IMG/VR virus record: IMGVR_UViG_3300037041_002705 | Span: 1-64,000 of that record | DNA length: 64,000 bases | Source of the DNA: a virus | Direction: 5' to 3' (one strand) | In this document: positions 2,899 through 36,769 of the stretch, one piece after another | Position numbering within the stretch: position 1 is the stretch's first letter | Layout of the letters: each line of letters begins with the position of its first letter | Notes under the pieces: generated by a model | Seen by the model: the letters and a program-made list of their open reading frames with translations, nothing else | Databases searched by the model: none | Told to the model about the DNA's origin: nothing | Position numbers and translations under genes: made by a program

Positions 2899-4065
2899 TT
2901 ACTGTGCTATTACAACCCACTGGCCATTGTGGTACAGAAGCGTTGCGCTGTTCCTTGGGCCAATGAATACATCTCCGCCCCAAACGTTCCAGATTCCTGC
3001 TGGGATCGAAACAAAGTTTGCAGTTGAGCTGTTAACGATTGTGATGATTCTTCCTTCTACTGCATTTGGAAGAGGCGTGTTAAAGTCCTGTGCAACACGA
3101 TAGATCAATGTTCTTACATCGTTATCAATTGTTGCGAGAGGAACAAGTGTCAACTGTGTTCTTCCTTCGATCCTTGTTGCGCTCCTCCATTGGAGAGAAG
3201 TTCCATTGGTTGTAAGTGTTGCGTAGTTTTCTGCGCCAGCTGCAGCAATTGCAGCAAGGTTAACACCGTTTGCATACACAAAGTGTGTATTTGTAGAGAC
3301 AAATGCACTATCTGCTCTTGTTGCATTTACTGCATTTGTTGCATTGACTGCATGTGCTGCTCTAACTGCAGAATCTGCAAGCGTTGCTTGGTCTGCAAGT
3401 GTTGCTCGGTCTGCAAGCCTAGAGCGGTTTGCAAGAAGAGCATATGATGCACTGTCTGCCCAAACTGCATGCGCTGAGCTAGATGCATAGAGCGACACAT
3501 CGCTTCTTACTGCATGGTCAGACTCTTTTGCATGAAGTGCACTGTCTGCCTTTGCTGCATGGCGGGCTTCATTTGCATTCACAGCATTTGTTGCATTCAC
3601 AGCATTTGTTGCATTTGCAGCATGAAGAGCGCTGTCTGCCTTAGCAGCATGAACTGCTTCTGTTGCAAGATCAGCAAGCTTTGCTGTGTTTGCCCTTACT
3701 GCTTGAATTGCAGTTCCTGCATATGGTGCAGGATCCATGATGATTGTGTCATGTGGCGTTCCATTGATTGCAACGTAGAGGTAGAGCCCACCACGATACT
3801 TCACAAGTGAATCAAGGTTCACATCCTTAAGGCGGTAGTTTACAACGCCGTTTACGATTTCGATCTCTTGGTTCTCAACATACCAAACTGGGTAGTTCTG
3901 GTCGTTGAAAGCAGATCCGAGCTTAAAGCCATCGCGAGCGATGTAGAGACTCAGATTGTTCTTTCCAGTCTGACTTGACCAACCTTGGTAGGTAAAGTCG
4001 ATGTTTTGTGCGTTTGTTGCAACCGTGAACAGGATGGCAACTAGTGCGAGTAATACTTTCTTCAT
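2899..4065 (-). CDS. secreted protein with Ala-rich repeat stalk
   Basis: Sec signal MKKVLLALVAILFTVATNA|Q; FTYQG and APYA motifs; NATNAV and HAAKADSALHA repeats; fibre-tip-like C-terminus. Confidence 0.8.
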   Translation of the reverse strand: MKKVLLALVAILFTVATNAQNIDFTYQGWSSQTGKNNLSLYIARDGFKLGSAFNDQNYPVWYVENQEIEIVNGVVNYRLKDVNLDSLVKYRGGLYLYVAINGTPHDTIIMDPAPYAGTAIQAVRANTAKLADLATEAVHAAKADSALHAANATNAVNATNAVNANEARHAAKADSALHAKESDHAVRSDVSLYASSSAHAVWADSASYALLANRSRLADRATLADQATLADSAVRAAHAVNATNAVNATRADSAFVSTNTHFVYANGVNLAAIAAAGAENYATLTTNGTSLQWRSATRIEGRTQLTLVPLATIDNDVRTLIYRVAQDFNTPLPNAVEGRIITIVNSSTANFVSIPAGIWNVWGGDVFIGPRNSATLLYHNGQWVVIAQ

Positions 4066-4078
4066 TATATCCTTCTCC

Positions 4079-4483
4079 TTATTGTTTGATGATTTTTACT
4101 GTTTTACCGTCTTGAGTTCTTACAAAATACATTCCAGATGGTGCACTCGATAGATCGAATGAACCTTCAATATCTCCTTGAAACACCAATGTTCCAATCT
4201 GTGAGAATACCCTAACATTTCCTGTATGCTCAATGTTAAAGATCCCATTTGACGGGTTCGGCCAAACCTTTGCACCTGGCTCTACCACAACTTCTTCCCT
4301 GACGCTTACCATGATGCCATTTGGCCTCCAGTATCCTGTCCATAGCCCTCTTCCTACTGGCGAGTAAGAAGATATCTTCCCAACTGTTGATGCCTTTGAT
4401 CCCATGCCAATATGGCTAGGGAAGTTGGTCGCACCACATACCACTGATCCCAACAATAGGACCAAAAATAAGACTTTTGTCAT
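4079..4483 (-). CDS. small T9SS type A sorting-domain protein
   Basis: Signal peptide plus C-terminal VWPNPSNG...DLSSAPSGMYFVR...KIIKQ. Confidence 0.85.
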   Translation of the reverse strand: MTKVLFLVLLLGSVVCGATNFPSHIGMGSKASTVGKISSYSPVGRGLWTGYWRPNGIMVSVREEVVVEPGAKVWPNPSNGIFNIEHTGNVRVFSQIGTLVFQGDIEGSFDLSSAPSGMYFVRTQDGKTVKIIKQ

Positions 4484-4531
4484 ACTTCTCCTTAGATTTT
4501 GTCTTTGTTATACTGAGGATGGAACCGAATG

Positions 4532-5557
4532 TTACGCCATTCCTGTTTCTTTTGGGCCGCCCCATCTGGCAATGCTACGCCCTACGGTATCACGTACATC
4601 AACGTGTGTGAACGTTGGATAAAGACCGAGCCCTCCCTTGTGCCAGCTGTTGAGCCAGGTGTATATCTCCTTTGGCGTGACTCCATCGATCTTTATGTCT
4701 GCTGCATTTCCATACATGTGTTGTGAATTCTTTGCAGCGCCTTTGAGCATCTTATTATACTTTGGTGTTCTGTATGCCGATATCACCTTTACTGGTTTTC
4801 CGAAGTGCGATCTTATCTTCTCTAAGAGATCAACAAGTGTTGGGTTTATCAGTATGACATCTGATCCGTCTCTGCACTTAAAGTCTGATACTTTGAAGTT
4901 TGGAGAAAGCTGTTTTGATCCATCCTTTGAAAGGCTGTACTGAACAGACTTGTCTGCCATTGATGAATCCTCTGGGAAGTTCACTCCTGGCTGGACCTGT
5001 TTACCTTTTATGACCGATGACGTTGGTGCCGATATGCTTGAAGATGCATTTGGATCAGTCTTTGCCTTCTTGACACCCTGTTCAATTCCTCCATCAGGTC
5101 TAGGTTCTAGTTCTATCGATGAAGGAAGCTGTGCCATTGCCTTGTTCTCTTTGAGGACATTCCACAGCTTTATTATTTCCCCCTCTTCAGATATCTCAAA
5201 TATGGATTTTAGTCCCTCAACAAATCCTCTGTCGATTGCATCTACGAGCTTGACATTTATTCCCATTTCCCTCATCACCAGCCTGCACTTGATGACTGCT
5301 GTTGATGTGTGTTGATCATACAATTCAACGTCGATGCCCTTGTCTATGTCCGAGAACCCAAGCATGTATATGCAGCCCTTGAGGTAAGTAACAAGATCGT
5401 TTCTTGATCCGGGTGTTATCACGGCAGATGAATCCATCTTTTCAAGAACACCATCAGAGATCTCAAGGCCTATCTCAGATATCTCAGGCCAGATCTCTAT
5501 GAACTGATCCTTTTCATATATTGATGTATCGTACTCTTTTGTGAATCCTAGTGCCAT
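4532..5557 (-). CDS. peptidase M15A-domain protein (peptidoglycan peptidase)
   Basis: C-terminal LSPNFKVSDFKCRDG, SAYRT, SQHMYGNAADI, FTHVDVR with Zn ligands H/D/H. Confidence 0.9.
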   Translation of the reverse strand: MALGFTKEYDTSIYEKDQFIEIWPEISEIGLEISDGVLEKMDSSAVITPGSRNDLVTYLKGCIYMLGFSDIDKGIDVELYDQHTSTAVIKCRLVMREMGINVKLVDAIDRGFVEGLKSIFEISEEGEIIKLWNVLKENKAMAQLPSSIELEPRPDGGIEQGVKKAKTDPNASSSISAPTSSVIKGKQVQPGVNFPEDSSMADKSVQYSLSKDGSKQLSPNFKVSDFKCRDGSDVILINPTLVDLLEKIRSHFGKPVKVISAYRTPKYNKMLKGAAKNSQHMYGNAADIKIDGVTPKEIYTWLNSWHKGGLGLYPTFTHVDVRDTVGRSIARWGGPKETGMA

Positions 5558-6249
5558 TACTTGCCTGCCTTTCTCTTTGCGATCATTTGCTTAAGCATCT
5601 TGTCGTTGTTTGCTATCTTGTAGATCCTCTCTGCCAGGTTTGACCTGAAGTTCTGTTCTTCTTTCTTGTCCCTGTCCTTTGATATCTCATACTTTTTGAG
5701 GACGTCTATTGCCTTTTGGGAAACCGATCCAGGTGAGGTCATGTTCCTCCAAACGCCTGGAAACTTTTCTCTCATCTCATACACTATGTATGCAAGCTGA
5801 GGCTCAAGGTCATCGATCTTGGAATTCTTCCAAAACGAATGGGAACTCTTCAACATTGGAAAGAACTCATCATTGTAATGGTCCCATCTCTGCCGTCCAT
5901 CATCAGTGGGCTTCTTTGTCAGCGTGGAATCCGTCCACTGTGCCAAACCACGACCTGGTCCTATTGGCTTTCCAGATATTATCTGAAGCTGCGTAGGATT
6001 GAAGTAGCTCTCCCTCCAGAGGTTTCCTGCTGTTGCAGAGGCTCCTTCAAGGCTCATCCCACTTGACACAAACCATCTTACTATGAACTTTGCAAGATCC
6101 TCTGGTATGTCATAGAGATCAGGCTGATCCCTTTGTCCGTAAGGCGTCTTTGGATACGGCGGGGTAAATGATTTTGCCTGCTTTGGTGGTTCATCATTCG
6201 ATGAGAAGAGCCCCTTGAACCAGTCTATTATATCGTTTACAAAATCCAC
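5557..6249 (-). CDS. phage tail lysozyme family protein
   Basis: AGNLWRES.FNP, GRGLAQWT, QLAYIVYEM motifs; GTG start at 6249 lies downstream of the ATATATA motif. Confidence 0.85.
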   Translation of the reverse strand: MDFVNDIIDWFKGLFSSNDEPPKQAKSFTPPYPKTPYGQRDQPDLYDIPEDLAKFIVRWFVSSGMSLEGASATAGNLWRESYFNPTQLQIISGKPIGPGRGLAQWTDSTLTKKPTDDGRQRWDHYNDEFFPMLKSSHSFWKNSKIDDLEPQLAYIVYEMREKFPGVWRNMTSPGSVSQKAIDVLKKYEISKDRDKKEEQNFRSNLAERIYKIANNDKMLKQMIAKRKAGK

Positions 6250-6265
6250 GTGGGAGAGATTTTTG

Positions 6266-6274
6266 CTATATATC
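6266..6274 (-). promoter_or_regulatory. putative late promoter (GATATATAG)
   Basis: Recurrent intergenic motif, here just after a terminator and before the lysozyme/M15A pair. Confidence 0.6.
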
Positions 6275-6279
6275 AAAGA

Positions 6280-6303: not shown

Positions 6304-6306
6304 GTC

Positions 6307-8781: not shown

Positions 8782-8881
8782 AAAATGCTCAAGAAAATCA
8801 AAAAGTGTTTTTTTTGAATCTATATTCTATGTATATTGCATCTATAAGTTATTTCAACACAGCCACCCAAGGGCAGTTCCA

Positions 8882-10072
8882 ATGAAAAACATCATTCTCC
8901 TCCTAGCCTTTATAGCTCTCAATATCCCATCTGTTTCACAGACAAAGGGACAAAAACCAAGCGATTTGGCTGAGTTCTTTATCCGCCCAATGATCCAGGA
9001 TGAATACTACCCAGCAGCACCAGACTCACTATACGAGCTTGAATGGGACCAACTTGTCAGCCGGCTTGATGAGTACACATACTACAACGGTGAAGAAGAG
9101 ACAGTAAAACGCAGTGACATGCTCATTGGATCGCAAGTAAAGGGAGCAACGGGAATTCGCCTCATCACAAAGGACTCATTTGTGGTTGTATCAAAGGTAT
9201 GGAAGGATGGGCCTGCATACAACCAAGGAATTGGCATCGGAGACACAATCCTTTCTGTTGGGGGAAATATTGTTAAGAATCACGGGGACGCATCAGCAAA
9301 CATCCGTGGCAAAGTTGGAACAAAGGTTGTTGTGTCAGTTGCCCGTGAAGGAAAGCGATTTGATGTTGAGCTTGAGCGTTCAGCCGTCAAGGTATCAACA
9401 GCAATGGGCAAGAAGCAGGGCAACACACTCCGATTCAAGGTGTTCATGTTCTCTGAGGGCGTGTCTGATTCCATCGCAAACATTGCCTCACGCCTCGGAA
9501 CAAAGGGAGTTGACACTGTTGTTCTCGACCTTCGTGGAAACTCAGGAGGCCTTCTCAGCGAGGGTGAATCAATGGCCAAGCTCTTTGTGAAGGAAGGAGA
9601 TACAGCATTGGTATACAAGCGTCGCAAGGGAGAAGAAGTCGTCATGTCTGACGAATACAACCCTCTCCAGAACATCAAGAACATCGTCGTGCTTATCGAC
9701 TCTGGAACAGCATCAAGCTCAGAGATCGTTGCAGGAACACTCAAGGTTCGTCGCAATGCAAAGATCGTTGGAACAAAGAGCTACGGCAAGGGTGTTATCC
9801 AACATGTGAAGGAAGTTGAAGGTGGTTCATTCAAGATGACAGTTGCCGAGTACTTTGCAGGTGGAACACTCAAGATCCAAGGCGTTGGCATCTTTCCTGA
9901 TGTTGAGTTCTCAGAGAAGCCGGTTGATGCAGCAGTTGCAGCAGGCCTTGATCTCAAGAAGTTCCGCAAGGACAATCCACTCCCAAACATCGATGCCCTC
10001 AAGAAGGCAAAGCTCGGACCTGAAGTTGCCGAGTACATCTGGGGCGATCTTGGAATCTTTGAACTCCGTTAA
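8882..10072 (+). CDS. S41 family C-terminal processing protease (PDZ + S41)
   Basis: Signal peptide MKNIILLLAFIAL; PDZ GIRL...GPA...IGDTILSV; LDLRGNSGG, TASSSE (catalytic Ser), KSYGKG (catalytic Lys), GIFPD. Confidence 0.92.
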   Translation: MKNIILLLAFIALNIPSVSQTKGQKPSDLAEFFIRPMIQDEYYPAAPDSLYELEWDQLVSRLDEYTYYNGEEETVKRSDMLIGSQVKGATGIRLITKDSFVVVSKVWKDGPAYNQGIGIGDTILSVGGNIVKNHGDASANIRGKVGTKVVVSVAREGKRFDVELERSAVKVSTAMGKKQGNTLRFKVFMFSEGVSDSIANIASRLGTKGVDTVVLDLRGNSGGLLSEGESMAKLFVKEGDTALVYKRRKGEEVVMSDEYNPLQNIKNIVVLIDSGTASSSEIVAGTLKVRRNAKIVGTKSYGKGVIQHVKEVEGGSFKMTVAEYFAGGTLKIQGVGIFPDVEFSEKPVDAAVAAGLDLKKFRKDNPLPNIDALKKAKLGPEVAEYIWGDLGIFELR

Positions 10073-10979: not shown

Positions 10980-11588
10980 TTATCTGTATACATTTCCAAT
11001 ATTGAATGCACTGTAGTCCATAGGATGGACTTGGAGCTCAAAGTAGTTGAACCTAAAGCTGCACGTAAACTGCTTTGTTGAGTTTGATATGTCTGTGTAT
11101 GTAGGAGTCAGATCACTTATCCCAAGAAACAGCACCTGCTTTAGTGTTTGGAGTATGGTCAGGTCTCCATTGCTGGTCAGATAGAGTATCTCCAGATCTG
11201 GGAAGAATTCTTCTCCCGGATCATCTGGCTCCTCGGCTGCAAAGTTTGTGTATCGTATGAGCTGCTCATACATAAGCCAGTAGTTCAGGTATGCATCAAC
11301 AAGCCTGAATGTAACCGTGAACTCTTTGTTTATAACCTGTGAGAACTTGTAGCCCTGCCTGTATGCAATCGTTCGTCCTGCCTGAACCTGTTCAACTGGC
11401 GTCACTCCTGTGATGCCAGGAAAGCTTATTGACTGGACTGTTGAATTCAGGAAGGACCTCACATCGGCATACGGAGTCGGAAGATCCTTTAGGTACTGTT
11501 GGTACTTCTCCTCTATGGCTGGATACAAGAACCCCTTTGGGAAGAGGAACTTGAACTGGTTATATCTGGCATTTAGAAAGACTGACAT
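10980..11588 (-). CDS. tail-tube-fold protein, T4 gp3-like tail completion protein
   Basis: QFKFLF, VQSISFPGI, FTVTFRLVDAYLNYWLMY, FTCSFRFNYF resemble the gp3/gp19 fold. Confidence 0.6.
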   Translation of the reverse strand: MSVFLNARYNQFKFLFPKGFLYPAIEEKYQQYLKDLPTPYADVRSFLNSTVQSISFPGITGVTPVEQVQAGRTIAYRQGYKFSQVINKEFTVTFRLVDAYLNYWLMYEQLIRYTNFAAEEPDDPGEEFFPDLEILYLTSNGDLTILQTLKQVLFLGISDLTPTYTDISNSTKQFTCSFRFNYFELQVHPMDYSAFNIGNVYR

Positions 11589-25903: not shown

Positions 25904-27025
25904 ATGGCAATAAACATCTTATTTGATTCTAGCTTTCTTCTCCACAGAAACCTGTTCTCTCTTGCAAACAATGCATCAGGAAGGTTCTTTGATGATCCAC
26001 AGGATGAGGCACTGTTCGTAAAGAAGCTCATGGAGGACATAAACTCCATAGTGGCAATATTTCCTAAGTCAATGATGGGAAAACTCATCTGGGCAAAGGA
26101 TTCTAGGTCCTGGCGCAAGGATTTGATTGAGAGGATATCTTACAAGGGCACAAGGGTCAAAGATGAGACAAAGGTCAACTGGGAGGAATTCCACCGGGTG
26201 TCAAATGAATTTGCAGGTGTCATATCTGAATGCGGGTTCATCGTCTCATCGGAGAGCAAGGCAGAGGCCGATGATCTTCTTTACCTCTGGTCGCAACACT
26301 TCCTTGAGACCGGTGAGTCATCAATCATAGTGACATCAGATAGGGACCTGAACCAATGCGTTAGATATGAGGGCAATGAGATGGTCTGCATCTACAATCC
26401 AATGTTCAAGGTCAGAAAGTTCACGTTCCACCAAGACCTCAATGGAGTGGATTGGACAAATAATTCATCTGGCATAGATGATCTTTTCTCCATGGGAGAG
26501 GAAACATCAGCAGAGAAAGTGATGAAGATATCATCACAATACGAACAAGAGTTTGTTGACCCAAATCAAGTCACAATAGTCAAGATCTTTGAGGGCGACA
26601 AGGGAGATAACGTTCCATCAGCGCTTCAATGGAAGAAAACAGATTCTGAAGGAAACGAAAGGACCTACTCATTTACCCCTAGAATGGTTGAGAAGCTCAT
26701 GGGAGATCTTGAGTACACAAAGAGCGTGATCGATGATCTTCGGTTTAATGAATCGTTTAGGTCAATGATCTCACGACAGGCAATTGAGATATCAAAGCAG
26801 CCGCTTGATCCTGAAGAGGTCTCACAGAGGATACTCGACAACATAGCAATCATGTATCTTGACAGGGACATAATACCCGATGAAATCCACCTATCTAACA
26901 CGGATCTTCCAAGAAGGTCACTAGACCTGACAGAGTCAAAGGTATATGAAATGAAACCTGAATGGACGTACTCTCCAAAGAGCGGTGGCGGAATAGATTC
27001 TGACATTTTCTCCATGATGTCCTGA
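25904..27025 (+). CDS. 5'-3' exonuclease / RNase H (T4 rnh, FEN-like)
   Basis: ILFD, DSRSWRK, YKGTR, EADD, SDRDLNQ, GDKGDNVP. Confidence 0.9.
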   Translation: MAINILFDSSFLLHRNLFSLANNASGRFFDDPQDEALFVKKLMEDINSIVAIFPKSMMGKLIWAKDSRSWRKDLIERISYKGTRVKDETKVNWEEFHRVSNEFAGVISECGFIVSSESKAEADDLLYLWSQHFLETGESSIIVTSDRDLNQCVRYEGNEMVCIYNPMFKVRKFTFHQDLNGVDWTNNSSGIDDLFSMGEETSAEKVMKISSQYEQEFVDPNQVTIVKIFEGDKGDNVPSALQWKKTDSEGNERTYSFTPRMVEKLMGDLEYTKSVIDDLRFNESFRSMISRQAIEISKQPLDPEEVSQRILDNIAIMYLDRDIIPDEIHLSNTDLPRRSLDLTESKVYEMKPEWTYSPKSGGGIDSDIFSMMS

Positions 27026-28731
27026 TGGATGTAAACAACAACCTCAGTGAAGTGATGAAGACCCTTTATGACAAAGGGTTCAAGTTTAGATCATTCCAAG
27101 AGGAGACGATCATAAGGATCGCAAACTCAATTGCGCAGGATCCAAATGGGGCGATCCTCATAGATGCCCCTACAGGAACAGGAAAGAGCATAATATCGAT
27201 AGTTGGATCTGTGCTTCTCAATTCAATGGGCCACAGGGGCTACATACTCACATCAGATCTTGGGCTGCAGACGCAGTATGAGGATGACATCAACCGCCTT
27301 AGTTTCAACATCCCATCGGTCAGAGGGCTTGATAACTACGACTGCCTTGTGAATTCGCAGCCGATATCTCTTGGTGAATGCAGGACAAAAGGATCTGGCA
27401 ACGACATCCCGTGCTACTCAGACTGTCCATACTTCTCAAGAAGGGATCATGCTGCTTATGCCAAAACAGCAATGCTGAACTACAGCTATTGGCTCCTGCA
27501 GCTGAACTACGTTCTAGAGAAGCAGGGAGGAATGGCAAAGTTTGACAAGAGGGATTTCTGTTTCTTTGATGAGGCCCATAAGGTTCAAGACATTGTCCAG
27601 GGTCACTTTTCTCCGAGGATATCACACAGAATATCCGACATGGTCGATGACTACCTAGAAGTGTATTCATCTGAGGTATCATCCGTTAGAAACAATTCAA
27701 GGGAAATAAGAAGAGAGGTTGATGCAATATGTGATGCAAGGGATGCAAAGCAAATGATTAAATCCATGTCGACGCTTAAGATCCTTCTTGCAGAAGCAAA
27801 GAAATCAAAGGAGTCATTCAAGCAGTACTGTGGAAAAAGATGGGAGTTTGGTCAACCTGTTCCAACTCACATATCAAAAGCGCAGAGGAACATAGACAGA
27901 ATAGGTGATGTCTACTGTAAGATTGAGGACTATCTTGAATGTCTTCAGGATGAAAAGGATCTTGTTAGGATAACGGACAAGAAGGATGAGAGGTCATTCT
28001 CGTTCAAGAATCTCAATGAATCGGGCCTCATAAAGAAGACGTTGCTTGAAAAGTCTGGCTTCAAGACGTTCATGTCTGCAACTCTTGGAAACCCAGAGAA
28101 CTATGCAAAGTTTATTGGACTTGAAAAGTACGACTACATAGAGATAGACAACCAGTTTGACCTTGAGAGCAGCCCGATATTCTTTTTCAAGGGGTATAAG
28201 CTCAACTGGGCAAACAGAGAGAAGAACTTCCCAAAGATACTTGAGATGTGCGACAAGGTAATAAACCACCATCAAGATGAGAGAGGCATTGTGCATAGCT
28301 CAAGCTTCTCACTCACACAGGATATAATAAAGTCATCAGCATCGTCCGATAGGTTCATAACATACGGATCGTCATCTGAAAAGGAGGATGCAATACAGAG
28401 GTTCAAAGATAGCACAAATGGTGTTCTCATAGGACCTTCGCTGCTCGAAGGTCTAAGCTTTGATGATGATCTTTCAAGGTTTCAGATATTCTTCAAGGTC
28501 CCTTTTCCAAATGTCTCTGATGAGTTCATGAAGAAGTTGCTTGAGACATACCCAGAAAAGTACATGGCAAAGACAGCAAACAACATGATACAGGGAACCG
28601 GAAGGAGCATAAGAAGCAAGGATGATTGGGCAATAACGTACATACTTGACACTTGCTTTGATCAGCTGTTTGATCTAAAACATCTTCCAAAATCCTTCAT
28701 AGAACGTGTAAAAGTAAGGAGGGTTGCATAA
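27025..28731 (+). CDS. DinG/XPD-family DNA helicase
   Basis: FRSFQ Q-motif, DAPTGTGKS, Cys cluster (putative Fe-S), DEAH, MSAT, EGLSF, QGTGRSIR. Confidence 0.9.
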   Translation: MDVNNNLSEVMKTLYDKGFKFRSFQEETIIRIANSIAQDPNGAILIDAPTGTGKSIISIVGSVLLNSMGHRGYILTSDLGLQTQYEDDINRLSFNIPSVRGLDNYDCLVNSQPISLGECRTKGSGNDIPCYSDCPYFSRRDHAAYAKTAMLNYSYWLLQLNYVLEKQGGMAKFDKRDFCFFDEAHKVQDIVQGHFSPRISHRISDMVDDYLEVYSSEVSSVRNNSREIRREVDAICDARDAKQMIKSMSTLKILLAEAKKSKESFKQYCGKRWEFGQPVPTHISKAQRNIDRIGDVYCKIEDYLECLQDEKDLVRITDKKDERSFSFKNLNESGLIKKTLLEKSGFKTFMSATLGNPENYAKFIGLEKYDYIEIDNQFDLESSPIFFFKGYKLNWANREKNFPKILEMCDKVINHHQDERGIVHSSSFSLTQDIIKSSASSDRFITYGSSSEKEDAIQRFKDSTNGVLIGPSLLEGLSFDDDLSRFQIFFKVPFPNVSDEFMKKLLETYPEKYMAKTANNMIQGTGRSIRSKDDWAITYILDTCFDQLFDLKHLPKSFIERVKVRRVA

Positions 28732-29150
28732 TGGATTTATTTGATCTAATCAAACAGATTTTTGATAGAGGCTCAAAGTGGGACGCAATAAAGACATATG
28801 ATAAGAGCAAAAACTTCTTCATGATAAACAGGTTCATGTCGATAAACTTTCCCATGCAGGCTAACCTGTTTAACAACAGACATATAGTTTCATCATCTGC
28901 GGTTGATTCATGGAGGGATGTACTCAACCGACTGTTTACGAAGCCTCCATCTTGGATGTACACAAAGACCAAGAAGAAGGAATCACAGGGGTCAAAGAAA
29001 TACCCAGAGAAGGCAACTGTACAAGAATGGATGAAGCTGAACGGCCTATCAAAGAAGGACTTTGAATCCATGATTGAACTCATGGGAGACGATGTGATAA
29101 AAGAGATTTTAAGCTTTGAAAAAATGTTAAAGGAGAAGAACAATGGATGA
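28731..29150 (+). CDS. putative clamp loader small subunit (gp62-like)
   Basis: MDLFDLIKQI, FMINRFMS, ANLFN, WMYTKTKKK resemble T4-type gp62; size fits. Confidence 0.5.
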   Translation: MDLFDLIKQIFDRGSKWDAIKTYDKSKNFFMINRFMSINFPMQANLFNNRHIVSSSAVDSWRDVLNRLFTKPPSWMYTKTKKKESQGSKKYPEKATVQEWMKLNGLSKKDFESMIELMGDDVIKEILSFEKMLKEKNNG

Positions 29151-29523
29151 AATGAAAAACGTGCCGTATGCAAAGTTGCAAAGTATGCATGATGAAATGG
29201 TAGAAAGCACATACGGAAACAGGGGTAAGTTTTTGAACTCCATGTCCCAAAATGCACTTGATGCATTGCAGCTTGTCATAAAGAAGACCCAGGATTATGC
29301 AACAATAGATGATCCTTACAGAAACTTTAGGATGTCTGAATCAGTAGGTGTTTCCTTAGAAAAGGGGATCCTGGTAAGAATGTGTGATAAACTTTCTAGG
29401 CTTGGCAACCTTGTTGAAAACGGTGATCCAAGCGTAAAAAGCGAGTCAATTGAGGACACTTTGATCGATGTAATGAACTACGCAAACATAATGTTGTGCT
29501 ATCTCCAACAAAAGAATAAGTAA
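29143..29523 (+). CDS. DUF1599 / nucleotide-modification-associated domain protein
   Basis: KKTQDYA, NF, ILVRMCDKLSRL, ESIEDTLIDVMNYA. Confidence 0.8.
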   Translation: MDEMKNVPYAKLQSMHDEMVESTYGNRGKFLNSMSQNALDALQLVIKKTQDYATIDDPYRNFRMSESVGVSLEKGILVRMCDKLSRLGNLVENGDPSVKSESIEDTLIDVMNYANIMLCYLQQKNK

Positions 29524-29557
29524 CTAGTTTATACATACATTTTGCAGAAAAATACAC

Positions 29558-32500
29558 ATGCCAATGAAAATCCTACTACAATTGTTGATGCTCCTGGTTC
29601 TTGCAACCAATGCATTTTCACAGACCGAACGCCGTGGTACAATGGTGCTCACAGAGGGCCGCAAGTACATTGTTGCGTTCCCGCAAGTTCAGGCCAGTGC
29701 AACAGAGAAGCCGATGCCACAGCCAATGCAGCTGCTCATCTCTTCGAAGACAAAGACAACAGTGCGCGTCCAGACACCTGCAGGTATCAATGATGCTCCA
29801 CGTATGGACAAGGAATACACCGTAGAGGCCAACAAGGTCCTCAAGATTTCGGTGTCAACGACATACATGAATACCGAATCGGAAACCCGTAAGGGCTACG
29901 GCATCATGGTGACGTCGAAGAAGCCAATTTCGGTCTCGACATATCAGGCATGGATGGGTAACGGTGAAATGGCTCGTCACCTTCCAGTTGAGGGATGGGG
30001 CAAGAACTACTACTCAATGAACTTCTATCAGGATCGCTACGGTAATAGCTCTGGCTACAAGTACCGTCCAGCACAGATCCTTCTGATCGCTGATAAGGAC
30101 AACACTGTTGTTTCATACACACCAACAGTTGATACTGAGGGTGGCGTCGAAACACCGAGCGTTCGCAAGGGTGCAACGCAGACGATCACGCTTGAGAAGG
30201 GTGAAACATTCCTGATCAAGGCGAAGATCAACGAAGACCAAAACAAGGAATGGTCAACTGACCTTTCGAGCACACTCATCCGCGCGAACAAGCCGGTAGG
30301 TGTCGTCTCTGGTCACGTGAAGGTGGCCATCATGCGCTACCCAGACGTGCTTCCTCCAACAGGTATGTTCGCTGCGGAAGCTCACTTCGTTCGTAGCAAC
30401 GTTCACGACGCTATGCTTCCGCTTGAAATGGCTGGAAAGAAGTTCGTGACAACTCCATGTATGTACACACCAACACGCGTTGTTGGTCAGGCATCTGTTG
30501 AGTTCGGTATCGATGACGATCGCGGCGACGTGATCCGCGTGATTGCTCTCGAAGATGGTACAACAGTCAAGGCTATGCGTCAAGACGGTAGCGGACTGCT
30601 GAACAAGTGGATGCTCAAGAAGGGTGAAACACGTCTCGAGACTGCACTTGAAGTTGCAACGTACTGGGAATCAGACAAGCCGATCCTCATGGGCCAGTAT
30701 GGCAAGTCATATGCTAAGATCCTTCCTCCGGCCTTCCTCCGCGATCGCTCAAAGGGAAGCAAGGATGGCGACGAAGCACAAGGACACCCAACTGTTGAGT
30801 CGGGCATGCCAATGTTGCAGTACATCCCATCTGTTGATCGTTGGGCAGATTACGGTGTGTTCCACGCTCCAGAAGGCATGGACAACTTCTTAAACATAGT
30901 CTTCAAGTCATCTGAAATCGGCAAGATCAAGGTTGACGGTCGTGCGCTCACATCTGCGTTCGGTGGTGCAATGCGCCTCCTGAAGGGTACAGAGTATGCG
31001 TTCATCCGTACGCCAATCGGCGCTGGCGACCACTTCATCGAAACAACAGATCCAAACGTCCGCTGGGCTGCTTGGAACTACGGTTCGCTTGATGGTCTTC
31101 AGCAAGGTCGTGCATACGGCACACCTATCTCGATTGACATGACGGTCCCATGTGATGACTCTCTTGCTGTCACAGAAGAACTCGTTTGCGGTGATGTCAA
31201 GGGTGAAGGCAAGATCCTTCCAGAAAACACTTCATGTGGTTCAATCTTCGCGGTCTATCCAGAAGAAATGAACAACTACGAACTCATCGTTGATGAAGAG
31301 TTCACAAGCGGCGACAAGAAGGTTACGTTTGAAGTCAAGGTGCTCGACAAGACAAAGGATGCGACAGCTACAATCAAGATTGTATCGCGCTCTGGCAAGT
31401 TCGTCGAGAAGACATACACGTATATCGCTGACAAGATCAGCTGGACTCCATCGAAGCTTGAATTTGGTACGATTCCATTCAACACGCCAACGTCGATGAC
31501 GTTCACAATCAAGAACGAAAAGACTGACCGTCCAGTAAACATCCGCAAGATCCGCGTGATGGGTGGTGATCAGATCTTCTTGACAAATCCTACTGGCCCG
31601 ATCACACTTGGTCCATCGGAATCACGTGAAGTAACAGTTACAGCACAGATCAAGACAGCTCCACTTGTTGTTGACACAGTGATCTGTGAACTTGATTGCT
31701 ATGACCAGAAGACAGTTGAACTCCGTGTTCGTGGTGAAGAGCCTAAGATCTACGTCAGCGATGTTGATTGGGGTACTATTCCAGCAAGCACAGCTGGCAT
31801 CGAGCGCGTTGTGAAGATTCTTAATGGTAGTAAAGTAGAACTTATTATTACAGGTTATCAACAAAATCTGCTTGATGGTACAGGTAAATTCTTCAATCCG
31901 ACAACAATGGACGGAAAGTCCCTTAATTCAGTATTCCCACTTGCAATTCCTGCAAATGGCTCGTACGACTTCAAGGTGACATACAGCCCTAAGGGTGAAG
32001 TAGCTGTTCCACACCGCGTGGATGTGCCATTCTACTCGAATGCAACTGGCGTTGACAACATCGCTGTTCTGACTGGTTCAGGTAACGATGTAAACGTTCA
32101 AGCGTACTCAACACCATGGATTGAGCGCGTCATCGACAAGGTTCAGACATCGCAGAATATCAACGAGTACACACAACGTATCTCGTTTGAAAACCTCGGT
32201 GATCAGCCTGTCACATATGAAGCACCGGTCATCCGCGGTACAGACGCATCGAACTTCCGCCTGGTTGACAACGGTAACGTAGGTACGTTCCCAGTTCAAC
32301 TTGTCAAGGGTTCTACAAATCAAACGCGTTATGTCACGGTCGCATTCGTTCCAACGGAACTCGCAAACCGTGCTGCAGAGCGCAAGTACAATGCAGAAAT
32401 CGTCTTCACGACAACAGGTGCTGATGGCGCAAAGAAGGATGTTGTTGCTGCTCTTGACGGAACAGCATGGCAGCCACAAGTCAAGGGCAATGATCTTGAC

Positions 32501-34045
32501 TTCCCAGGCACACTAAATGTTGGAGATGAGGCAAAGGTTCTTTCGATCCCAGTATCGAATGAGCACTTCTTGGGTCAGTCAAACCCGACAGACGGTACCC
32601 CAGCTGGTACATACAACGTTGTGATCACAGACATCAAGATCACAGACGCTGCAACTCGCTTTGAACTCCTGAATGCACCAACACCAGCTAACCCTTTGGT
32701 TATCAAGCCAGGTGAGGCTCCGGTTGAACTCCAAGTACGCTTCGACCCATCGGTCTCAGGTACATTCGAGTCGCCATATGTGATCAGCACGAACGTTGGT
32801 ACAAAGGGTCAGGCGACATACGAGCCTACCTATAAAATCACAGCACGTGTTCAAGGTGGTGAGTTCACGGTAACAGATGCAGATGCAGAGCAGTATGTCT
32901 TCAACACGAAGGACATGGCTATCCGCATCAAGCACACTGAGAACCAGACGATTCGCTACAACATTGCTCAGCCAACAGGCCCTGATGCTTCACGCTTCGT
33001 CATCGTTGACCAATTCGTCGACGTTGCTCCAGGCCAAGAAGTTGCAGTTCCTGTGATCTTCATGCCTGACTTCGTTACAAAGCTCCGTAATGGTCAATCA
33101 GACCTCAAGGACGCAAACAACGAGTGGACAAAGAAGGCGAAGACACAAGGCATCATGTGGCGTGGCAATAGCTTCGCAGCTGAAGTCGTTATCTCTGACG
33201 ACCGTAATGCAGCGAAGACAAAGACAGCAACGCTTACAGGTAACGGTCTCTTCCTTGAGACAACGAACCTGATCAAGGATACATACACGGTTGCACCTGG
33301 TGCATCAGTTGACATCCCGGTTGAACTCAATGCAACACCTGAATCTGTTGATGCAGTTGGCATGACAGAACTCCGTGTGCGTCTGAGCTGGGATCCGAAG
33401 CTTGTCAAGCCACGTGTTAATGCCGCTGACTTCATCACAGCTGGCCTCCAAGCTGAAGGCTGGACTATTCGCGCAACACCAATCAATGGCAAGCCTTCAG
33501 ATGCATCGAACTCAGTTGAGATCGATCTCTGGGACGAGCGCGCAAATCCAGTTGCTATCAAGAACAACGGTACACCGGTATTCAGTGTGAAGTTCGATGC
33601 ATTCTTTGATAAGGGCGTGTCGGGCACATTCACATCACCGCTGAACATCTACACGTACACTGTTGACCACGACAAGTCTGGTGATCGTAAGGATTACACG
33701 CTCTTCCGCGATATTCCTGGCAAGATCACAATCACAATGCCATGCGCATCGATAACACGCCTTGTTGCTGTTGGTAACTTCAAGTATGCGGTCAAGCCAA
33801 TGAGCCCTAACCCAGTTTCGAACTCAGGTATCATCAGCTACTCAGTGGGTCTTACAGCGAACACACGTATCGTTCTCTTCAACAGCATGGGTCAAGAAGT
33901 TCAGACACTCATCAACGATAAGCTTGAAGCTGGTAGCTATGAGATGACAGTTGACTTCTCGAATCTCCCAACTGGTACATACTTCTATCGCGTCATCTCT
34001 GGTCCGTTCTCGAGCGAACCACAAACAGTGACAGTAGTGAAGTAA
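29558..34045 (+). CDS. large secreted multi-Ig protein with IgGFc-binding-type N-terminus and T9SS sorting domain
   Basis: Signal peptide; TEGRKYIVAFP, LPVEGWGKNYY, ANKPVGVVSGH (IgGFc-binding-like); repeated LEFG/VDWG/LDFP...N Ig domains; cohesin-like domain; C-terminal SPNPVS...GQEV...LPTGTYFYRV...VVK. Confidence 0.88.
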   Translation: MPMKILLQLLMLLVLATNAFSQTERRGTMVLTEGRKYIVAFPQVQASATEKPMPQPMQLLISSKTKTTVRVQTPAGINDAPRMDKEYTVEANKVLKISVSTTYMNTESETRKGYGIMVTSKKPISVSTYQAWMGNGEMARHLPVEGWGKNYYSMNFYQDRYGNSSGYKYRPAQILLIADKDNTVVSYTPTVDTEGGVETPSVRKGATQTITLEKGETFLIKAKINEDQNKEWSTDLSSTLIRANKPVGVVSGHVKVAIMRYPDVLPPTGMFAAEAHFVRSNVHDAMLPLEMAGKKFVTTPCMYTPTRVVGQASVEFGIDDDRGDVIRVIALEDGTTVKAMRQDGSGLLNKWMLKKGETRLETALEVATYWESDKPILMGQYGKSYAKILPPAFLRDRSKGSKDGDEAQGHPTVESGMPMLQYIPSVDRWADYGVFHAPEGMDNFLNIVFKSSEIGKIKVDGRALTSAFGGAMRLLKGTEYAFIRTPIGAGDHFIETTDPNVRWAAWNYGSLDGLQQGRAYGTPISIDMTVPCDDSLAVTEELVCGDVKGEGKILPENTSCGSIFAVYPEEMNNYELIVDEEFTSGDKKVTFEVKVLDKTKDATATIKIVSRSGKFVEKTYTYIADKISWTPSKLEFGTIPFNTPTSMTFTIKNEKTDRPVNIRKIRVMGGDQIFLTNPTGPITLGPSESREVTVTAQIKTAPLVVDTVICELDCYDQKTVELRVRGEEPKIYVSDVDWGTIPASTAGIERVVKILNGSKVELIITGYQQNLLDGTGKFFNPTTMDGKSLNSVFPLAIPANGSYDFKVTYSPKGEVAVPHRVDVPFYSNATGVDNIAVLTGSGNDVNVQAYSTPWIERVIDKVQTSQNINEYTQRISFENLGDQPVTYEAPVIRGTDASNFRLVDNGNVGTFPVQLVKGSTNQTRYVTVAFVPTELANRAAERKYNAEIVFTTTGADGAKKDVVAALDGTAWQPQVKGNDLDFPGTLNVGDEAKVLSIPVSNEHFLGQSNPTDGTPAGTYNVVITDIKITDAATRFELLNAPTPANPLVIKPGEAPVELQVRFDPSVSGTFESPYVISTNVGTKGQATYEPTYKITARVQGGEFTVTDADAEQYVFNTKDMAIRIKHTENQTIRYNIAQPTGPDASRFVIVDQFVDVAPGQEVAVPVIFMPDFVTKLRNGQSDLKDANNEWTKKAKTQGIMWRGNSFAAEVVISDDRNAAKTKTATLTGNGLFLETTNLIKDTYTVAPGASVDIPVELNATPESVDAVGMTELRVRLSWDPKLVKPRVNAADFITAGLQAEGWTIRATPINGKPSDASNSVEIDLWDERANPVAIKNNGTPVFSVKFDAFFDKGVSGTFTSPLNIYTYTVDHDKSGDRKDYTLFRDIPGKITITMPCASITRLVAVGNFKYAVKPMSPNPVSNSGIISYSVGLTANTRIVLFNSMGQEVQTLINDKLEAGSYEMTVDFSNLPTGTYFYRVISGPFSSEPQTVTVVK

Positions 34046-34067
34046 TCGAGCAGTAGCACGTAACCTC

Positions 34068-34104
34068 AACAGCCTCCTTCCGGAACTCCGGGAGGAGGCT
34101 GTTT
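34068..34104 (+). terminator. strong hairpin terminator
   Basis: AACAGCCTCCTTCCGG-AACT-CCGGGAGGAGGCTGTT. Confidence 0.75.
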
Positions 34105-34169
34105 CATTATAAACACAGCTTTTCCTCTTAAGGTAGAGATAAATACCACCAGTAAAAAAACCCAACCAT

Positions 34170-34478
34170 ATGATGAAATATCTAAAGCTATCCTGGGCAG
34201 GCATAAAATGGTTTGTTACAGAGATAATGAACATGTATAGCAGCAAACCATCGTTCTTTTCAAAGAAGAGGATCGAATCTGGAATTGCATTTTTTGTTGC
34301 ACAATGGGGAATGATACACTGGTTGACATCAAAGTTTGATGTTATGACAACATCAGATTTTGCGATGTGGGCAGGCATTGAACTTGCAGCAGCAGGATAC
34401 ATGGTAACGCAGATACAGAAAGAAAAGAAAGCAGAAGAATCTGATGTTTATACTGAGGAAAACGAAATAGATCAATAG
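34170..34478 (+). CDS. putative holin
   Basis: 102 aa with two hydrophobic segments, SKKR motif and charged C-tail, directly before the endolysin. Confidence 0.6.
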   Translation: MMKYLKLSWAGIKWFVTEIMNMYSSKPSFFSKKRIESGIAFFVAQWGMIHWLTSKFDVMTTSDFAMWAGIELAAAGYMVTQIQKEKKAEESDVYTEENEIDQ

Positions 34479-34508
34479 GTCTGCCCCGAGTAAAAATAAT
34501 TTCAAGCA

Positions 34509-35348
34509 ATGACACTAAAAATAGGATCAGAAGGAGAAGACGTAAAGAAGCTACAAACTGTTCTTGGATTAAAAGCCGATGGAAAGTTTGGTCCTGGAAC
34601 ACAAGCAGCTCTTAAATCTTGGCAAGAAAAGAATGGCCTTGATGCAGATGGTATAGCAGGCCAAAAGACGTTAGAAAAAATGGGAGTATCTCCAACTAGT
34701 TCTGTGCCTACACCAGCACCAGTGGTCCAAGAATCCAATGGAGGGCAAGGGCTAAACATTTCGGCGCTTAAAGGCCACATACCTGATGCAGTTCTTGCAC
34801 AGATACCTGACACTGCAGCAAAGTTTAACATCACAACAAATCTTAGGCTTGCTCATTTCCTTGCACAGTGTGGTCATGAATCAGCTGGATTTAAGGCAGT
34901 ATCTGAAAATCTTAATTACTCTGCAGATGGTCTAAAGAAGATATTTCCAAAGTATTTTCCTGGAAGCCTCAATGAATCATACGCTAAGAAGCCAGAGAAG
35001 ATTGGCGCAAGGGTGTATGGTGGAAGAATGGGAAATGGAGATGAGACGACAGGAGAGGGCTATAAGTTTAGAGGCCGTGGCTATATTCAATTGACAGGTA
35101 AATCAAATTATACAAAGTTTGGACAGTTTATTGGAGCAGATCTATTATCAAATCCAGACCTGGTTGCAACAAAGTATCCTCTTGCATCTGCGGCATTCTT
35201 CTTTGATTCAAATGGCCTTTGGACAATATGTGACAGGGGAGCAACAGATGATGTTGTCACGTCGGTAACAAAGAGGGTAAATGGTGGAACAATAGGGCTT
35301 CCTGATAGAATAAAGCATTTCAAAGAATACTACAATTTATTGACATAA
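34509..35348 (+). CDS. endolysin, PG-binding domain + GH19
   Basis: LKIGSEGEDVKKLQ...DGKFGPGT...DGIAG; FLAQCGHES, ENLNYS, GRGYIQLTGKSNY, TKRVNGG. Confidence 0.95.
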   Translation: MTLKIGSEGEDVKKLQTVLGLKADGKFGPGTQAALKSWQEKNGLDADGIAGQKTLEKMGVSPTSSVPTPAPVVQESNGGQGLNISALKGHIPDAVLAQIPDTAAKFNITTNLRLAHFLAQCGHESAGFKAVSENLNYSADGLKKIFPKYFPGSLNESYAKKPEKIGARVYGGRMGNGDETTGEGYKFRGRGYIQLTGKSNYTKFGQFIGADLLSNPDLVATKYPLASAAFFFDSNGLWTICDRGATDDVVTSVTKRVNGGTIGLPDRIKHFKEYYNLLT

Positions 35349-35427
35349 TCTAGCACTTTCTGTAACTTTTTGATGCAAAAAGGCTTCTTATTAAGAACGA
35401 ACACATTCCAAAAAATAGGAGATCTTA

Positions 35428-36114
35428 ATGAAAAATGTAATTCTGTCCATCGCATTCTTGCTTGGAATTTTGATGGTTCCTTCGTGCTCTGACATCACAA
35501 CAAAGCCAGAAGAGCCAAATGCAATGTACTTCCAAGTGAACGGCGATGGATCATATGCTGAGCCCGAGGCAGTTGGAGAACGCCCAAATAGGGATTCAGT
35601 AAAGAAGGACACAACAGATAGAAAGAGGGATACCACAACAGGCCGCAAGGATACTGTTAAAAAGGCACCCCCAACTATATTCGGTGACCTACTTAACAAG
35701 CTAAACCTTGGTCCAGATCAGAATGCAATCGTTGAAAGGCTGCTTGCTCAACACAAGGCATGCGTAGAAGAATGCGTAAAGCCACTGAAGGCAGCAGAGG
35801 CAGAGATACTCGCAAAGGCCCGAAAACAAGAGGCAGAGATCAAAAAGGCAGTTGAAGCAGGCACAATAACAAAGGCCCAGGCCCGCGTAAAGCTTGCTGC
35901 CCTAAAGGCAAACGTCAATAAGGCACTAAAGTCACTTCCAGTTCGTCGGTCAGTACAAGAATGCATAAAGGCATGTGATGCGACTTTTATAAATGGACTT
36001 GAGCGAATTCTCAGTGCCGACCAAAAGATCATACTAAAGAGCTGGTTGGATTCAAGGGCAAAGCGTGGCACTTCTGGAAAGAAGGATACGACTGATGTTA
36101 AGCCAAGAGGTTAA
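35428..36114 (+). CDS. lipoprotein, helical
   Basis: Signal MKNVILSIAFLLGILMVPS-C lipobox; KDTT repeats; LNLGPDQ...ILSADQK resembles Spy/CpxP LTxxQ motifs. Confidence 0.75.
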   Translation: MKNVILSIAFLLGILMVPSCSDITTKPEEPNAMYFQVNGDGSYAEPEAVGERPNRDSVKKDTTDRKRDTTTGRKDTVKKAPPTIFGDLLNKLNLGPDQNAIVERLLAQHKACVEECVKPLKAAEAEILAKARKQEAEIKKAVEAGTITKAQARVKLAALKANVNKALKSLPVRRSVQECIKACDATFINGLERILSADQKIILKSWLDSRAKRGTSGKKDTTDVKPRG

Positions 36115-36184
36115 TAATTTTGTTTAACTGAGAGTATATAAGCTGTTACTAATAATGGTAATAAAATAAAGAAAGGAACATTTC

Positions 36185-36769
36185 ATGAAGACATTTTTGA
36201 TTTCTATTCTTTGCTTGCTCTCAATGGTGCCTGCATTTTCACAGGAAACACCTGTTTGTGCAACTCCAGCAAAGAAGTATGTAAACGAGCTTGGTTTGGT
36301 ATTCCCAACAAAGACCGATGACATAAAGGGCTACATCAATGCAAACAACATTGCAGTCAATCCTTTGACGTCTGGTTTTAGCTCAGGCTTTCAAGTAGGA
36401 AAGCACCGCATTATAAATGACCAAGCCACACTTGGCGTTATATTGGCTGCAAATGGATTCTTCTCTGCAGGATCTGCCGAGAACCAAATCTATCAGTTTG
36501 GTGCATATCTAACAGGAAGGCTATACTTTGGTGAGACGTGGAGGAATGGAGTTTTTGCAGAAATTGGAGCGGGTCCAGAAGTTGCAGCAGCATCAGTCCA
36601 AGGCGGCGACTTCCAGTTCCAGGCAAACTTTGGAACAAAGCTGGGTGTTGGATACAACTACCAGTTTAACAAGGATGTAACGCTTGGTCTTTCCTTCATC
36701 ACAGCACCATCGATGCTGTCAGACAACTACTTTAATGGATCTAAGATTGTTGTCAATATGCTTTGGTAA
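36185..36769 (+). CDS. outer-membrane beta-barrel protein
   Basis: Signal peptide ending AFS|Q; amphipathic strands GRLYF, GVFAEIGAG, KLGVGYNYQF; C-terminal Trp (BAM-type signal). Confidence 0.8.
   Translation: MKTFLISILCLLSMVPAFSQETPVCATPAKKYVNELGLVFPTKTDDIKGYINANNIAVNPLTSGFSSGFQVGKHRIINDQATLGVILAANGFFSAGSAENQIYQFGAYLTGRLYFGETWRNGVFAEIGAGPEVAAASVQGGDFQFQANFGTKLGVGYNYQFNKDVTLGLSFITAPSMLSDNYFNGSKIVVNMLW

Follow-up and report, generated by a model that had tools for sequence, protein, structure and literature searches.

The window analysed here, that is, the whole stretch of 64,000 nucleotides (nt), comprises bases 1-64000 of a single 133,673-bp virus record in IMG/VR (IMGVR_UViG_3300037041_002705), which is classed as linear and, with a CheckV completeness of 42%, is a fragment of a phage genome. 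It carries six open reading frames (ORFs) whose products are predicted to be exported into the cell envelope, and two of these products end in a type A C-terminal sorting domain (CTD) of type IX secretion systems (T9SS). An earlier note had described the six as one toolkit for the host envelope that appears to use the T9SS of the host. All six ORFs were found where the note had placed them, and their translations were read:

2899-4065, minus strand: P0001, 388 amino acids (aa); signal peptide, N-terminal beta-sandwich, length-variable Ala/Ser-rich helical repeat and conserved C-terminal beta domain.
4079-4483, minus strand: P0002, 134 aa; a T9SS type A CTD preceded by a signal peptide and some 50 aa of linker, with little beyond the CTD.
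8882-10072, plus strand: S41 protease, with its ATG at 8882; signal peptide, PDZ and S41 domains, resembling a C-terminal processing peptidase.
29558-34045, plus strand: P0004, the big gene, 1495 aa; signal peptide, IgGFc_binding, choice-of-anchor D and type A CTD.
35428-36114, plus strand: P0005, a lipoprotein with a lipobox-like ...MVPSC|S and a helical domain with LTxxQ-like motifs.
36185-36769, plus strand: P0006, a small protein resembling outer-membrane (OM) barrels, with a signal peptide and a terminal W.

A Sec-type signal peptide was recognized on each of the six, both by a heuristic scan and by reading of the n-, h- and c-regions. Across all 123 ORFs of the record the scan flagged nine, namely these six and three ORFs with transmembrane-like N-termini (2460-2858, 51743-52027 and 123143-123883). 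The CTDs claimed for P0002 and P0004 were borne out as well. The curated cut-offs are 27 bits for PF18962 (Por_Secre_tail) and 23 bits for TIGR04183; P0002 scores 38.7 and 35.1 bits, and P0004, at its extreme C-terminus, 34.6 and 29.7 bits. Both matches lie behind signal peptides, stop at most 13 residues short of the C-terminus, and are the sole PF18962/TIGR04183 matches across the 133,673-bp record. Neither SprA nor PorV was found in the same record; the earlier note had seen no T9SS machinery in the window.

The larger of the two CTD proteins has a composite gene, made up of the following parts:

29558-29623, plus strand: signal-peptide part, not homologous to the host gene and resembling the signal peptides of a clade of phage homologues.
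29624-34045, plus strand: mature part, host-derived by homology, with IgGFc_binding, choice-of-anchor D/Ig-like domains and the type A CTD.
34046-34108, plus strand: host-derived 3' tail with a terminator-like arrangement, in which a short run of T comes after a GC-rich inverted repeat.

P0004 matches IgGFc_binding at 144 bits and choice-of-anchor D at 52 bits. It has full-length protein homologues, up to 90% identical, and those with a named source all come from metagenome-assembled genomes (MAGs) of Ignavibacteria or Kapabacteria. Relatives are encoded at 48 loci in species-representative genomes. The best of these, L007 ('uncultured Ignavibacteria bacterium'), is 95.7% identical in nucleotides over window 29623-34108 and nowhere else. 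In L007, L008 and L014 the gene stands in a chromosomal setting of KsgA, a PAP2 protein, a GSDH-like CTD protein, WaaA, enoyl-CoA hydratase and NamZ. The annotated flanking genes have homologues in 28-49 other loci, depending on the gene, and some of the contigs measure 0.5-1.3 Mb; judged by this conserved synteny, the loci are bacterial chromosomes. None of the phage neighbours of P0004 in the window was found at any of the 48 bacterial loci. A FastTree phylogeny with 79 rows puts the window copy deep within the bacterial clade, as the sister of L007, with an end branch of 0.042 vs. 0.008 for L007 (rows L031, L032, L033, L036, L045 and L052 represent a 1326-aa paralogue, the big gene being cut by the contig end there, and served as outgroup only, uncounted). 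The GC content of P0004 (0.495) likewise matches that of the L007 gene (0.498) rather than that of the phage (0.433). By these comparisons, the mature part of P0004 is captured host DNA that encodes the host's own surface protein, either acquired very recently or still exchanging sequence with the host copy. Neither a tblastn search of cultured phages with P0004 nor an IMG/VR scan with P0004 alone as query gave a match, and a sequence-profile search of the PDB with the big-protein family returned 0 hits. The 1326-aa paralogue (IgGFc_binding and a weak CTD) lies a few genes upstream of the host big gene, at 564-4544 in L007 and at the same place in L008 and L014. A gene between the two encodes a protein of 283 aa that matches no Pfam family and whose copies in the four closest MAGs are 94-98% identical.

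The orthology of the big gene also bears on the identity of the host. Because P0004 is 95.7% nt identical to a syntenic gene of an Ignavibacteria MAG, the host is likely a freshwater bacterium of the Ignavibacteriota/Kapabacteria type and not a Flavobacterium. In the MAGs behind L007, L008, L014, L009 and L041, which we infer to represent the phage host, SprA exceeds its cut-off in three of five and PorV in four of five, these MAGs being incomplete, so that misses mean little.

Homology to the host gene begins at the first residue past the signal peptide (window 29623) and stops about 60 nt 3' of the stop codon, at 34108, just beyond the terminator-like inverted repeat; as aligned, both junctions fall at functional boundaries. 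A signal peptide is retained in both host and phage copies of the big protein, but that of P0004 differs from the host's and resembles those of the phage-clade homologues, including an ...NAFSQ ending that it has in common with P0102. A single contig of 17,457 nt from a run of a different study (X2), with an even depth of 23.5, spans 27000-35401 including both junctions and, with 60 differences, has the same phage arrangement at 99.3% identity. Contigs from run X5 and from RNA run X12 represent the host version: at exactly 29623 and 34105 they depart from the window sequence, and the loose end carries the host signal peptide. The RNA run contains only the host version of the big gene, without phage flanks, and says nothing on phage expression. 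Chimeric assembly, which the earlier note had named as a possible source of error, is excluded because an independent contig from another study bridges both junctions; the join is real. In run X5, over window 27000-37000, the phage flanks have a depth of 7-10 and the host version of the big gene about 21 in the same lake run, which fits the co-occurrence of virus and host.

Within the mature part, long tracts of P0004 are 98-100% identical to L007, residues 148-340 being identical at the nucleotide level, and these tracts alternate with four islands of low identity (residues 1-120, 744-805 at 65-80%, 971-1033 and 1374-1443). The mature protein differs from that of L007 at 51 residues, 36 of them derived on the phage side, and 16 of the phage-derived changes are concentrated within residues 751-792, at positions that are near-invariant in six host sequences. 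They belong to the following feature:

31806-31935, plus strand: divergent AT-rich island, residues about 749-792, with the 16 phage-derived changes and two codons missing.

This island resembles other alleles of the big gene, e.g., L009, and the host contigs in X5 and X12 have 106 unrelated letters in place of 31806-31907. In our reading, the mosaic arose by recombination of an allele resident in the phage with that of the host, and the island itself could be a recombination relic or a patch of selected epitopes. A target of a diversity-generating retroelement was also considered for the patch; no second copy of 31780-31930 was found in the 133.7-kb record (about 42% complete), and recombination is preferred because the patch resembles other alleles of the L009 type. 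Between P0004 and L007, the whole-gene ratio of nonsynonymous to synonymous divergence (dN/dS) is 0.20, at a synonymous divergence (dS) of 0.136, and host copies compared with one another give ratios of 0.056-0.078; because the differences are clustered, near-identical tracts being averaged with divergent islands, the value for P0004 is a weak and rough sign of constraint.

Homologues of the big gene are found in two further IMG/VR records, L005 (39.8 kb, 46% identity) and L006 (253 kb, 40% identity). The latter record is 100% complete by CheckV, and its large terminase subunit (TerL) is 29% identical to that of the window. The gene order is the same in both, with a small gene for a signal peptide and CTD, a P0001-like gene, the big gene and a GH19 endolysin, and big-gene homologues stand at the same place ahead of a lysin in phage loci L005, L006, L084, L098 and L109. 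In the 79-row tree, L005 belongs to a clade of proteins of about 1410 aa, and this clade together with L006 is sister to the bacterial clade; the two members of the clade whose context is known are viral. In several phage loci the module has a peptide deformylase-like gene immediately upstream (L005, 7203-7982; L006, 7466-8260).

The smaller CTD protein, P0002, has a constant partner. The P0001-like gene is adjoined by a P0002-like gene, which ends 14-26 nt before it, at all 17 IMG/VR loci and at all 34 metagenome loci that extend at least 500 nt upstream, with partial overlap between the two sets; the gap in the window is 13 nt. About 30 proteins are clear relatives of P0001 (E <= 1e-20), and their contigs reach 275 kb. 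In all 23 members that were aligned, the signal peptide is followed by an N-terminal domain (about 115 aa), an Ala/Ser-rich repeat that varies in length and a C-terminal domain (about 120 aa). On this evidence, P0002/P0001 is a fixed, phage-specific and always-adjacent pair. The CTD of the small protein exceeds the Pfam cut-off in the window and also in L005 (32.4 bits) and L062 (38.4 bits). At 12 of 17 viral loci, and at 13 of the 16 metagenome loci with at least 6 kb downstream, the pair has a GH19 lysin in its vicinity; the big gene is present in 2/17 and 2/16 of these pair-bearing loci, respectively. In the window, as in L079 and L083, the pair instead follows two peptidoglycan hydrolase genes, identified here by Pfam and PHROGs:

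4532-5557, minus strand: Peptidase_M15, just upstream of the pair.
5557-6276, minus strand: Phage_lysozyme2, likewise just upstream of the pair.

P0001 itself matched no Pfam family and, by tblastn, no cultured phage, and a sequence-profile search of the PDB with its family gave 0 hits. Its AlphaFold2 model has a mean predicted local distance difference test score (pLDDT) of 59.7 and is confident for the two beta end domains only, the middle being modelled at low confidence as long helices. A Foldseek search of BFVD with this model gave 52 hits at E <= 1e-3 over one domain, the named ones including tail-fibre, minor-tail and baseplate proteins, with TMq values of 0.15-0.20. P0001 is predicted to be secreted and may be tail-fibre-like. 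A complex prediction for P0001 and P0002 scored 0.00, which gives no verdict and is evidence neither way. Near the pair in L062 lies a 60-aa holin-like ORF with two transmembrane segments (8878-9060), and a 97-aa ORF with a Phage Tail Collar domain (11301-11594) flanks the pair there, ahead of the GH19 lysin.

P0005 and P0006 lie directly 3' of a holin-like ORF and an endolysin, and hence in a lysis cassette, whose other genes are:

34170-34478, plus strand: ORF of 102 aa at the place of a holin; two of its segments are weakly hydrophobic, its C-terminus is charged and no Pfam family matches; a putative holin.
34509-35348, plus strand: endolysin (PG_binding_1 and GH19, by Pfam).

Homologues of this endolysin, at 54-71% identity, stand beside the pair or the big gene in other phage loci. 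The lipobox of P0005, which the earlier note had called a lipoprotein, is also present in L117, a close relative phage that was located through P0006. A homologue is found in single copy in five of five host-like MAGs, at 36-43% identity; the host copy is a lipoprotein with a canonical lipobox and adjoins an ORF that was read by eye as MlaE-like and an S8-peptidase-like ORF. By this homology P0005 is an old homologue of a host lipoprotein. L(T/G/S)xxQ-like motifs are visible in it by eye, and an Atlas lead of 0.88 points to a cluster in which 43% of members have LTXXQ. Membership of the Spy/CpxP LTXXQ family was considered but not confirmed, neither P0005 nor its host homologue matching PF07813 at E <= 1. 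An IMG/VR scan with P0005 alone found nothing. A contig from run X5 has an in-frame insertion of 21 nt at window 35600, in the Lys/Asp/Thr-rich linker of P0005, which suggests variation in repeat number between phage variants. For P0006, which the earlier note had called an OM beta-barrel, the signal peptide, the terminal W and Atlas language-model features (0.97-0.98 to small OM-barrel families) fit a small barrel, and the HMM evidence is weak, the OMP_b-brl profile (PF13505) reaching 22.5 bits, below its cut-off of 28.7. A search of the five host-like MAGs with P0006 as query found no homologue. In L117, whose TerL is 95% identical, the order of endolysin, P0005 (67% aa identity), P0006 (83%) and core genes is kept. 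The dN/dS ratios against L117 are 0.12 for P0005, 0.08 for P0006 and 0.02-0.035 for core genes, at a dS near saturation, and indicate that P0005 and P0006 are under purifying selection in this close relative. With ratios of 0.08-0.20, the genes are not in the neutral decay that the earlier note had considered.

The S41 protease was also recognized as claimed, its PDZ_2 (42.6 bits) and Peptidase_S41 (117.2 bits) domains both exceeding their cut-offs behind the signal peptide; TIGR00225 scores 200.9 bits, under its cut-off of 218.6. Motifs with Ser and Lys, which we take to be catalytic, are visible by eye. Eight close relatives (49-91% identity) are followed by a fall to 34% with cellular S41 proteins, and identity to the S41 proteins of the host-like MAGs is 30-32%. 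Among cultured phages the matches are mostly short or dubious records, and an IMG/VR scan with the protease alone found nothing. On this pattern of identities, the protease is specific to this phage lineage.

The original observation of six exported proteins, two of them with CTDs, is confirmed. The toolkit as one unit is not: the six genes lie in four separate places, have different histories and do not co-occur. They are a loose collection of independently acquired envelope genes, and neither a conserved set nor one machine, because S41 is found in 0/18 viral records (the 17 selected as carriers of the P0002/P0001 pair, and L117) and the IgGFc_binding big protein in 2/18.

We think it probable, with appreciable room for doubt, that a jumbo myovirus of freshwater Ignavibacteriota/Kapabacteria exports at least six envelope proteins and that the infected cell shows surface proteins chosen by the phage. 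What the sequences show is the domain architecture, the host origin of the big gene, conservation, purifying selection and the presence of T9SS genes in host-like genomes; export itself, its timing, surface display and its purpose are what we infer here. In this reading, host Sec would export the six or more phage proteins into the cell envelope. The CTD-bearing P0002 and P0004 would then be handed to the host T9SS (SprA/PorV), cross the outer membrane and become attached to the cell surface. P0004 is no invention of the phage but a conserved surface protein of the host, equipped with a phage-type signal peptide and encoded directly upstream of the lysis genes; P0001 and P0002 may act together at the cell surface, P0002 being the sole T9SS-tagged member of the pair; and the S41 protease, the LTxxQ-like lipoprotein and the small OM protein would be separate envelope accessories. 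The proteins displayed would thus comprise a variant of the host's own protein and one that possibly resembles a tail fibre, and they might serve receptor masking, superinfection exclusion or adhesion. The T9SS part of this reading is a plausible one; the host origin of P0004, the presence of T9SS genes in host-like genomes and the data on conservation and selection all add to its strength.

Several points weigh against it. It is drawn from sequence; signal peptides were called by a heuristic and by eye; the link to the host is made by one shared gene; and the dN/dS of P0004 is the rough measure described above. The co-occurrence counts for S41 and the big protein speak against a common programme, and the position of the pair, P0005 and P0006 near lysins fits a role in lysis too. 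T9SS targeting is moreover not a constant feature of the module, because the phage-clade homologues of the big protein (about 1410 aa, members tested) have no Por_Secre_tail match and the CTD of the small protein is sub-threshold in some relatives (13.6 bits in L006, and likewise in the records of L065, L069 and L077); the big protein of L006 is borderline, at 24-28.5 bits.

A more specific proposal, which we regard as speculative and rather unlikely, is surface mimicry through the host T9SS by large phages of freshwater Ignavibacteriota/Kapabacteria (records of 110-253 kb). A resident allele of the major host surface protein of ~1500 aa, subject to repeated gene conversion with the chromosomal copy, would provide a look-alike that is not a receptor and so confer superinfection immunity, P0002 serving in trans as a T9SS adaptor that takes the untagged, possibly tail-fibre-like P0001 to the cell surface. 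The phage would keep its own signal peptide and a phage-specific patch of about 40 residues (749-792), with the allele placed ahead of the lysin.

Among the alternatives to the export of surface proteins by the host T9SS, an accessory role in lysis survives best, although we consider it unlikely. P0002/P0001 and/or P0005 and P0006 would disrupt the outer membrane in the manner of spanins, as a helical periplasmic protein with a small OM-targeted one, in hosts for which canonical spanins are not recognized. The neighbourhood speaks for it, with a GH19 lysin within a few kb of the pair in most loci (12/17 viral, 13/16 metagenome), the M15 and lysozyme2 hydrolase genes ahead of the pair in the window, the holin-like ORF and endolysin directly before P0005 and P0006, and the two-transmembrane holin-like ORF in L062; the long central helical segment predicted for P0001 would suit it, and no spanin was recognized in PHROGs scans of the window, which covered 20 large ORFs. 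Against this, P0001 has a short h-region and an A-x-A-like cleavage site and no membrane anchor, the genes are neither embedded nor overlapping, unlike many spanin pairs, and the P0005 homologues are single-copy chromosomal genes in all five MAGs, which is not a prophage setting. Cargo with a type A CTD, furthermore, is brought to the outer face of the OM and would be on the wrong side to bridge the periplasm. The pair was also considered as a two-component spanin and rejected as such: P0001 has a cleavable-type signal peptide, P0002 lacks a lipobox, and the genes are 13 nt apart.

It is less likely still that P0001, and perhaps P0004, are virion proteins, i.e., fibres or decorations with beta-sandwiches as adhesion modules and uncleaved N-termini. 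One modelled domain of P0001 does match tail-fibre, minor-tail and baseplate proteins (the 52 BFVD hits), the L006 homologue has a weak Phage_depo_C match (21 bits vs. a cut-off of 25), a Phage Tail Collar ORF stands beside the pair in L062, and Ig-like domains are common on virions (Fraser, 2006, as given by an article citing it). However, the signal peptide is kept in 23/23 P0001 members and in both host and phage big proteins, P0004 is orthologous to a cellular gene for T9SS cargo, the fold matches reach TMq values of 0.15-0.20 only, with a model of mean pLDDT 59.7, and the window genes lie in replication and lysis regions, outside the tail module (56-64 kb).

About equally improbable is the view that the big gene is a transient passenger, picked up recently and neutrally from the host, and that the other exported proteins are unrelated morons with no remodelling programme behind them. 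The tracts of 98-100% nt identity imply very recent transfer, the big gene is found in just 2 of 18 viral records, and its dN/dS is three times that among host copies. Set against these points, divergent phages (L005, L006, L084, L098 and L109) have homologues at the same pre-lysin place, the clade of about 1410-aa proteins suggests long residence in phages, the frame, phage-type signal peptide and CTD are intact, and an independent sample has the same arrangement at 99.3% identity. That an assembler joined a host-like segment to phage DNA, or that host DNA contaminates the record, is hardly credible: host and phage do co-occur in run X5 and identical tracts of hundreds of bases could mislead an assembler, but the junctions coincide with the signal-peptide cleavage site and the end of the terminator-like repeat, the phage copy differs from all host copies by 36 phage-derived residue changes, and the even-depth contig from another study spans both joins.

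Known phage envelope genes offer partial parallels. The morons Lom and Bor of lambda, Llp of T5 and Cor of phi80/N15 have signal peptides or lipoboxes and are inserted in the host envelope, where Llp and Cor block the receptor of their own phage; they are exported via Sec/Lol/BAM only. Bor directly follows the lysis cassette, a position shared here by P0005 and P0006. None of these morons is known to be routed through the T9SS or to copy a surface protein of the host over its full length, the comparison being one of properties rather than of sequences. Cyanophage psbA, a host-derived gene that keeps recombining with the host copy, has a mosaic structure like that of P0004, near-identical stretches alternating with divergent ones, and its phage copy is under purifying selection; psbA is a metabolic gene of the cytoplasmic membrane, whereas P0004 is a predicted secreted surface protein. 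The lambda spanins Rz/Rz1 are encoded, like the pair here, by adjacent genes in or near a lysis cassette and combine a helical periplasmic protein with a small OM-directed one; the pair, in contrast, has no membrane anchor, lipobox or embedded genes, and its targeting to the OM would be via the CTD to the outer face.

The statement of the earlier note that no characterized phage system of this kind was known needs correction, as phage T9SS cargo has already been reported in silico. 'Cryophage' has three variable T9SS type A genes, and its authors proposed a hijack of the host T9SS and discussed competition or superinfection exclusion (Bellas et al., 2020; PMC7468147). The likeness lies in phage genes that end in T9SS type A sorting domains. 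Cryophage, as described there, is a 76-kb phage with enzymes as cargo (endoglucanase, GH39, PA14), whereas the window belongs to a jumbo T4-like phage with an Ignavibacteriota-type host, and its cargo would be the host's own 1495-aa surface protein, mosaic with the chromosomal copy, and a small protein that is nearly CTD only; both systems are known from sequence. Similarly, ORFs with T9SS sorting domains stand beside BACON-repeat ORFs in crAss-like and other gut phages, there phages of Bacteroidota (de Jonge et al., 2019; PMC6949934). These CTD-bearing ORFs lie near head and structural genes and have BACON repeats, with no host orthology shown, and those of the window lie near lysis and replication genes. 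A full-text literature search on the T9SS as a viral auxiliary gene and on phages of Ignavibacteria/Kapabacteria gave nothing beyond these two articles, supplements lying outside the search (that of Cryophage may list more CTD genes); a further article mentions the T9SS for the host only (PMC10013915). The same kind of search found no experimental test of phage T9SS cargo. The concept of phage T9SS cargo is thus not new; new here are the mosaic copy of a host surface protein in a phage, the phage-host link drawn from that copy, and the invariant P0002/P0001 pair.

If phage CTD proteins do pass through the host T9SS, this would be an uncharacterized route by which viruses rewrite the surfaces of bacteria of the FCB group, with a bearing on superinfection exclusion, receptor dynamics and the attachment of particles in lakes. 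Through the near-identity of P0004 to a chromosomal gene, a jumbo phage and an Ignavibacteriota/Kapabacteria lineage, both uncultured, are linked directly, which is rare; P0004 would also illustrate how a phage and its host continue to exchange alleles of a secreted protein. The P0002/P0001 pair, widespread in freshwater viromes, forms a clean module of two genes that lends itself to testing.

The T4-like context that the earlier note had given for the six genes is a distant one. PHROGs and Pfam recognize ThyX, ribonucleotide reductase, a DNA polymerase, a clamp-loader-like ATPase, an exonuclease and a helicase among the phage genes, together with the following:

39541-41433: TerL.
41486-44980: tail sheath.
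56737-63675: four tail-fibre genes.

TerL is about 35% identical to its nearest counterparts in cultured phages (Tenacibaculum PTm1, Sphingomonas PAU and Lak phages) and has 2596 matches, mostly T4-like; by this measure, the label of a fragment of a T4-like jumbo phage is fair, the likeness to T4 being distant. No tRNA gene was found. In the region 15829-17696, minus strand, the DNA polymerase ORF (460 aa) covers only positions 101-496 of the 856-position phrog_262; a 161-aa ORF lies directly upstream of it, and the polymerase may be split. The four consecutive tail-fibre-like genes have a phrog_5073 segment in common, the last of them has collagen-like repeats, and the GC content rises there to 0.48.

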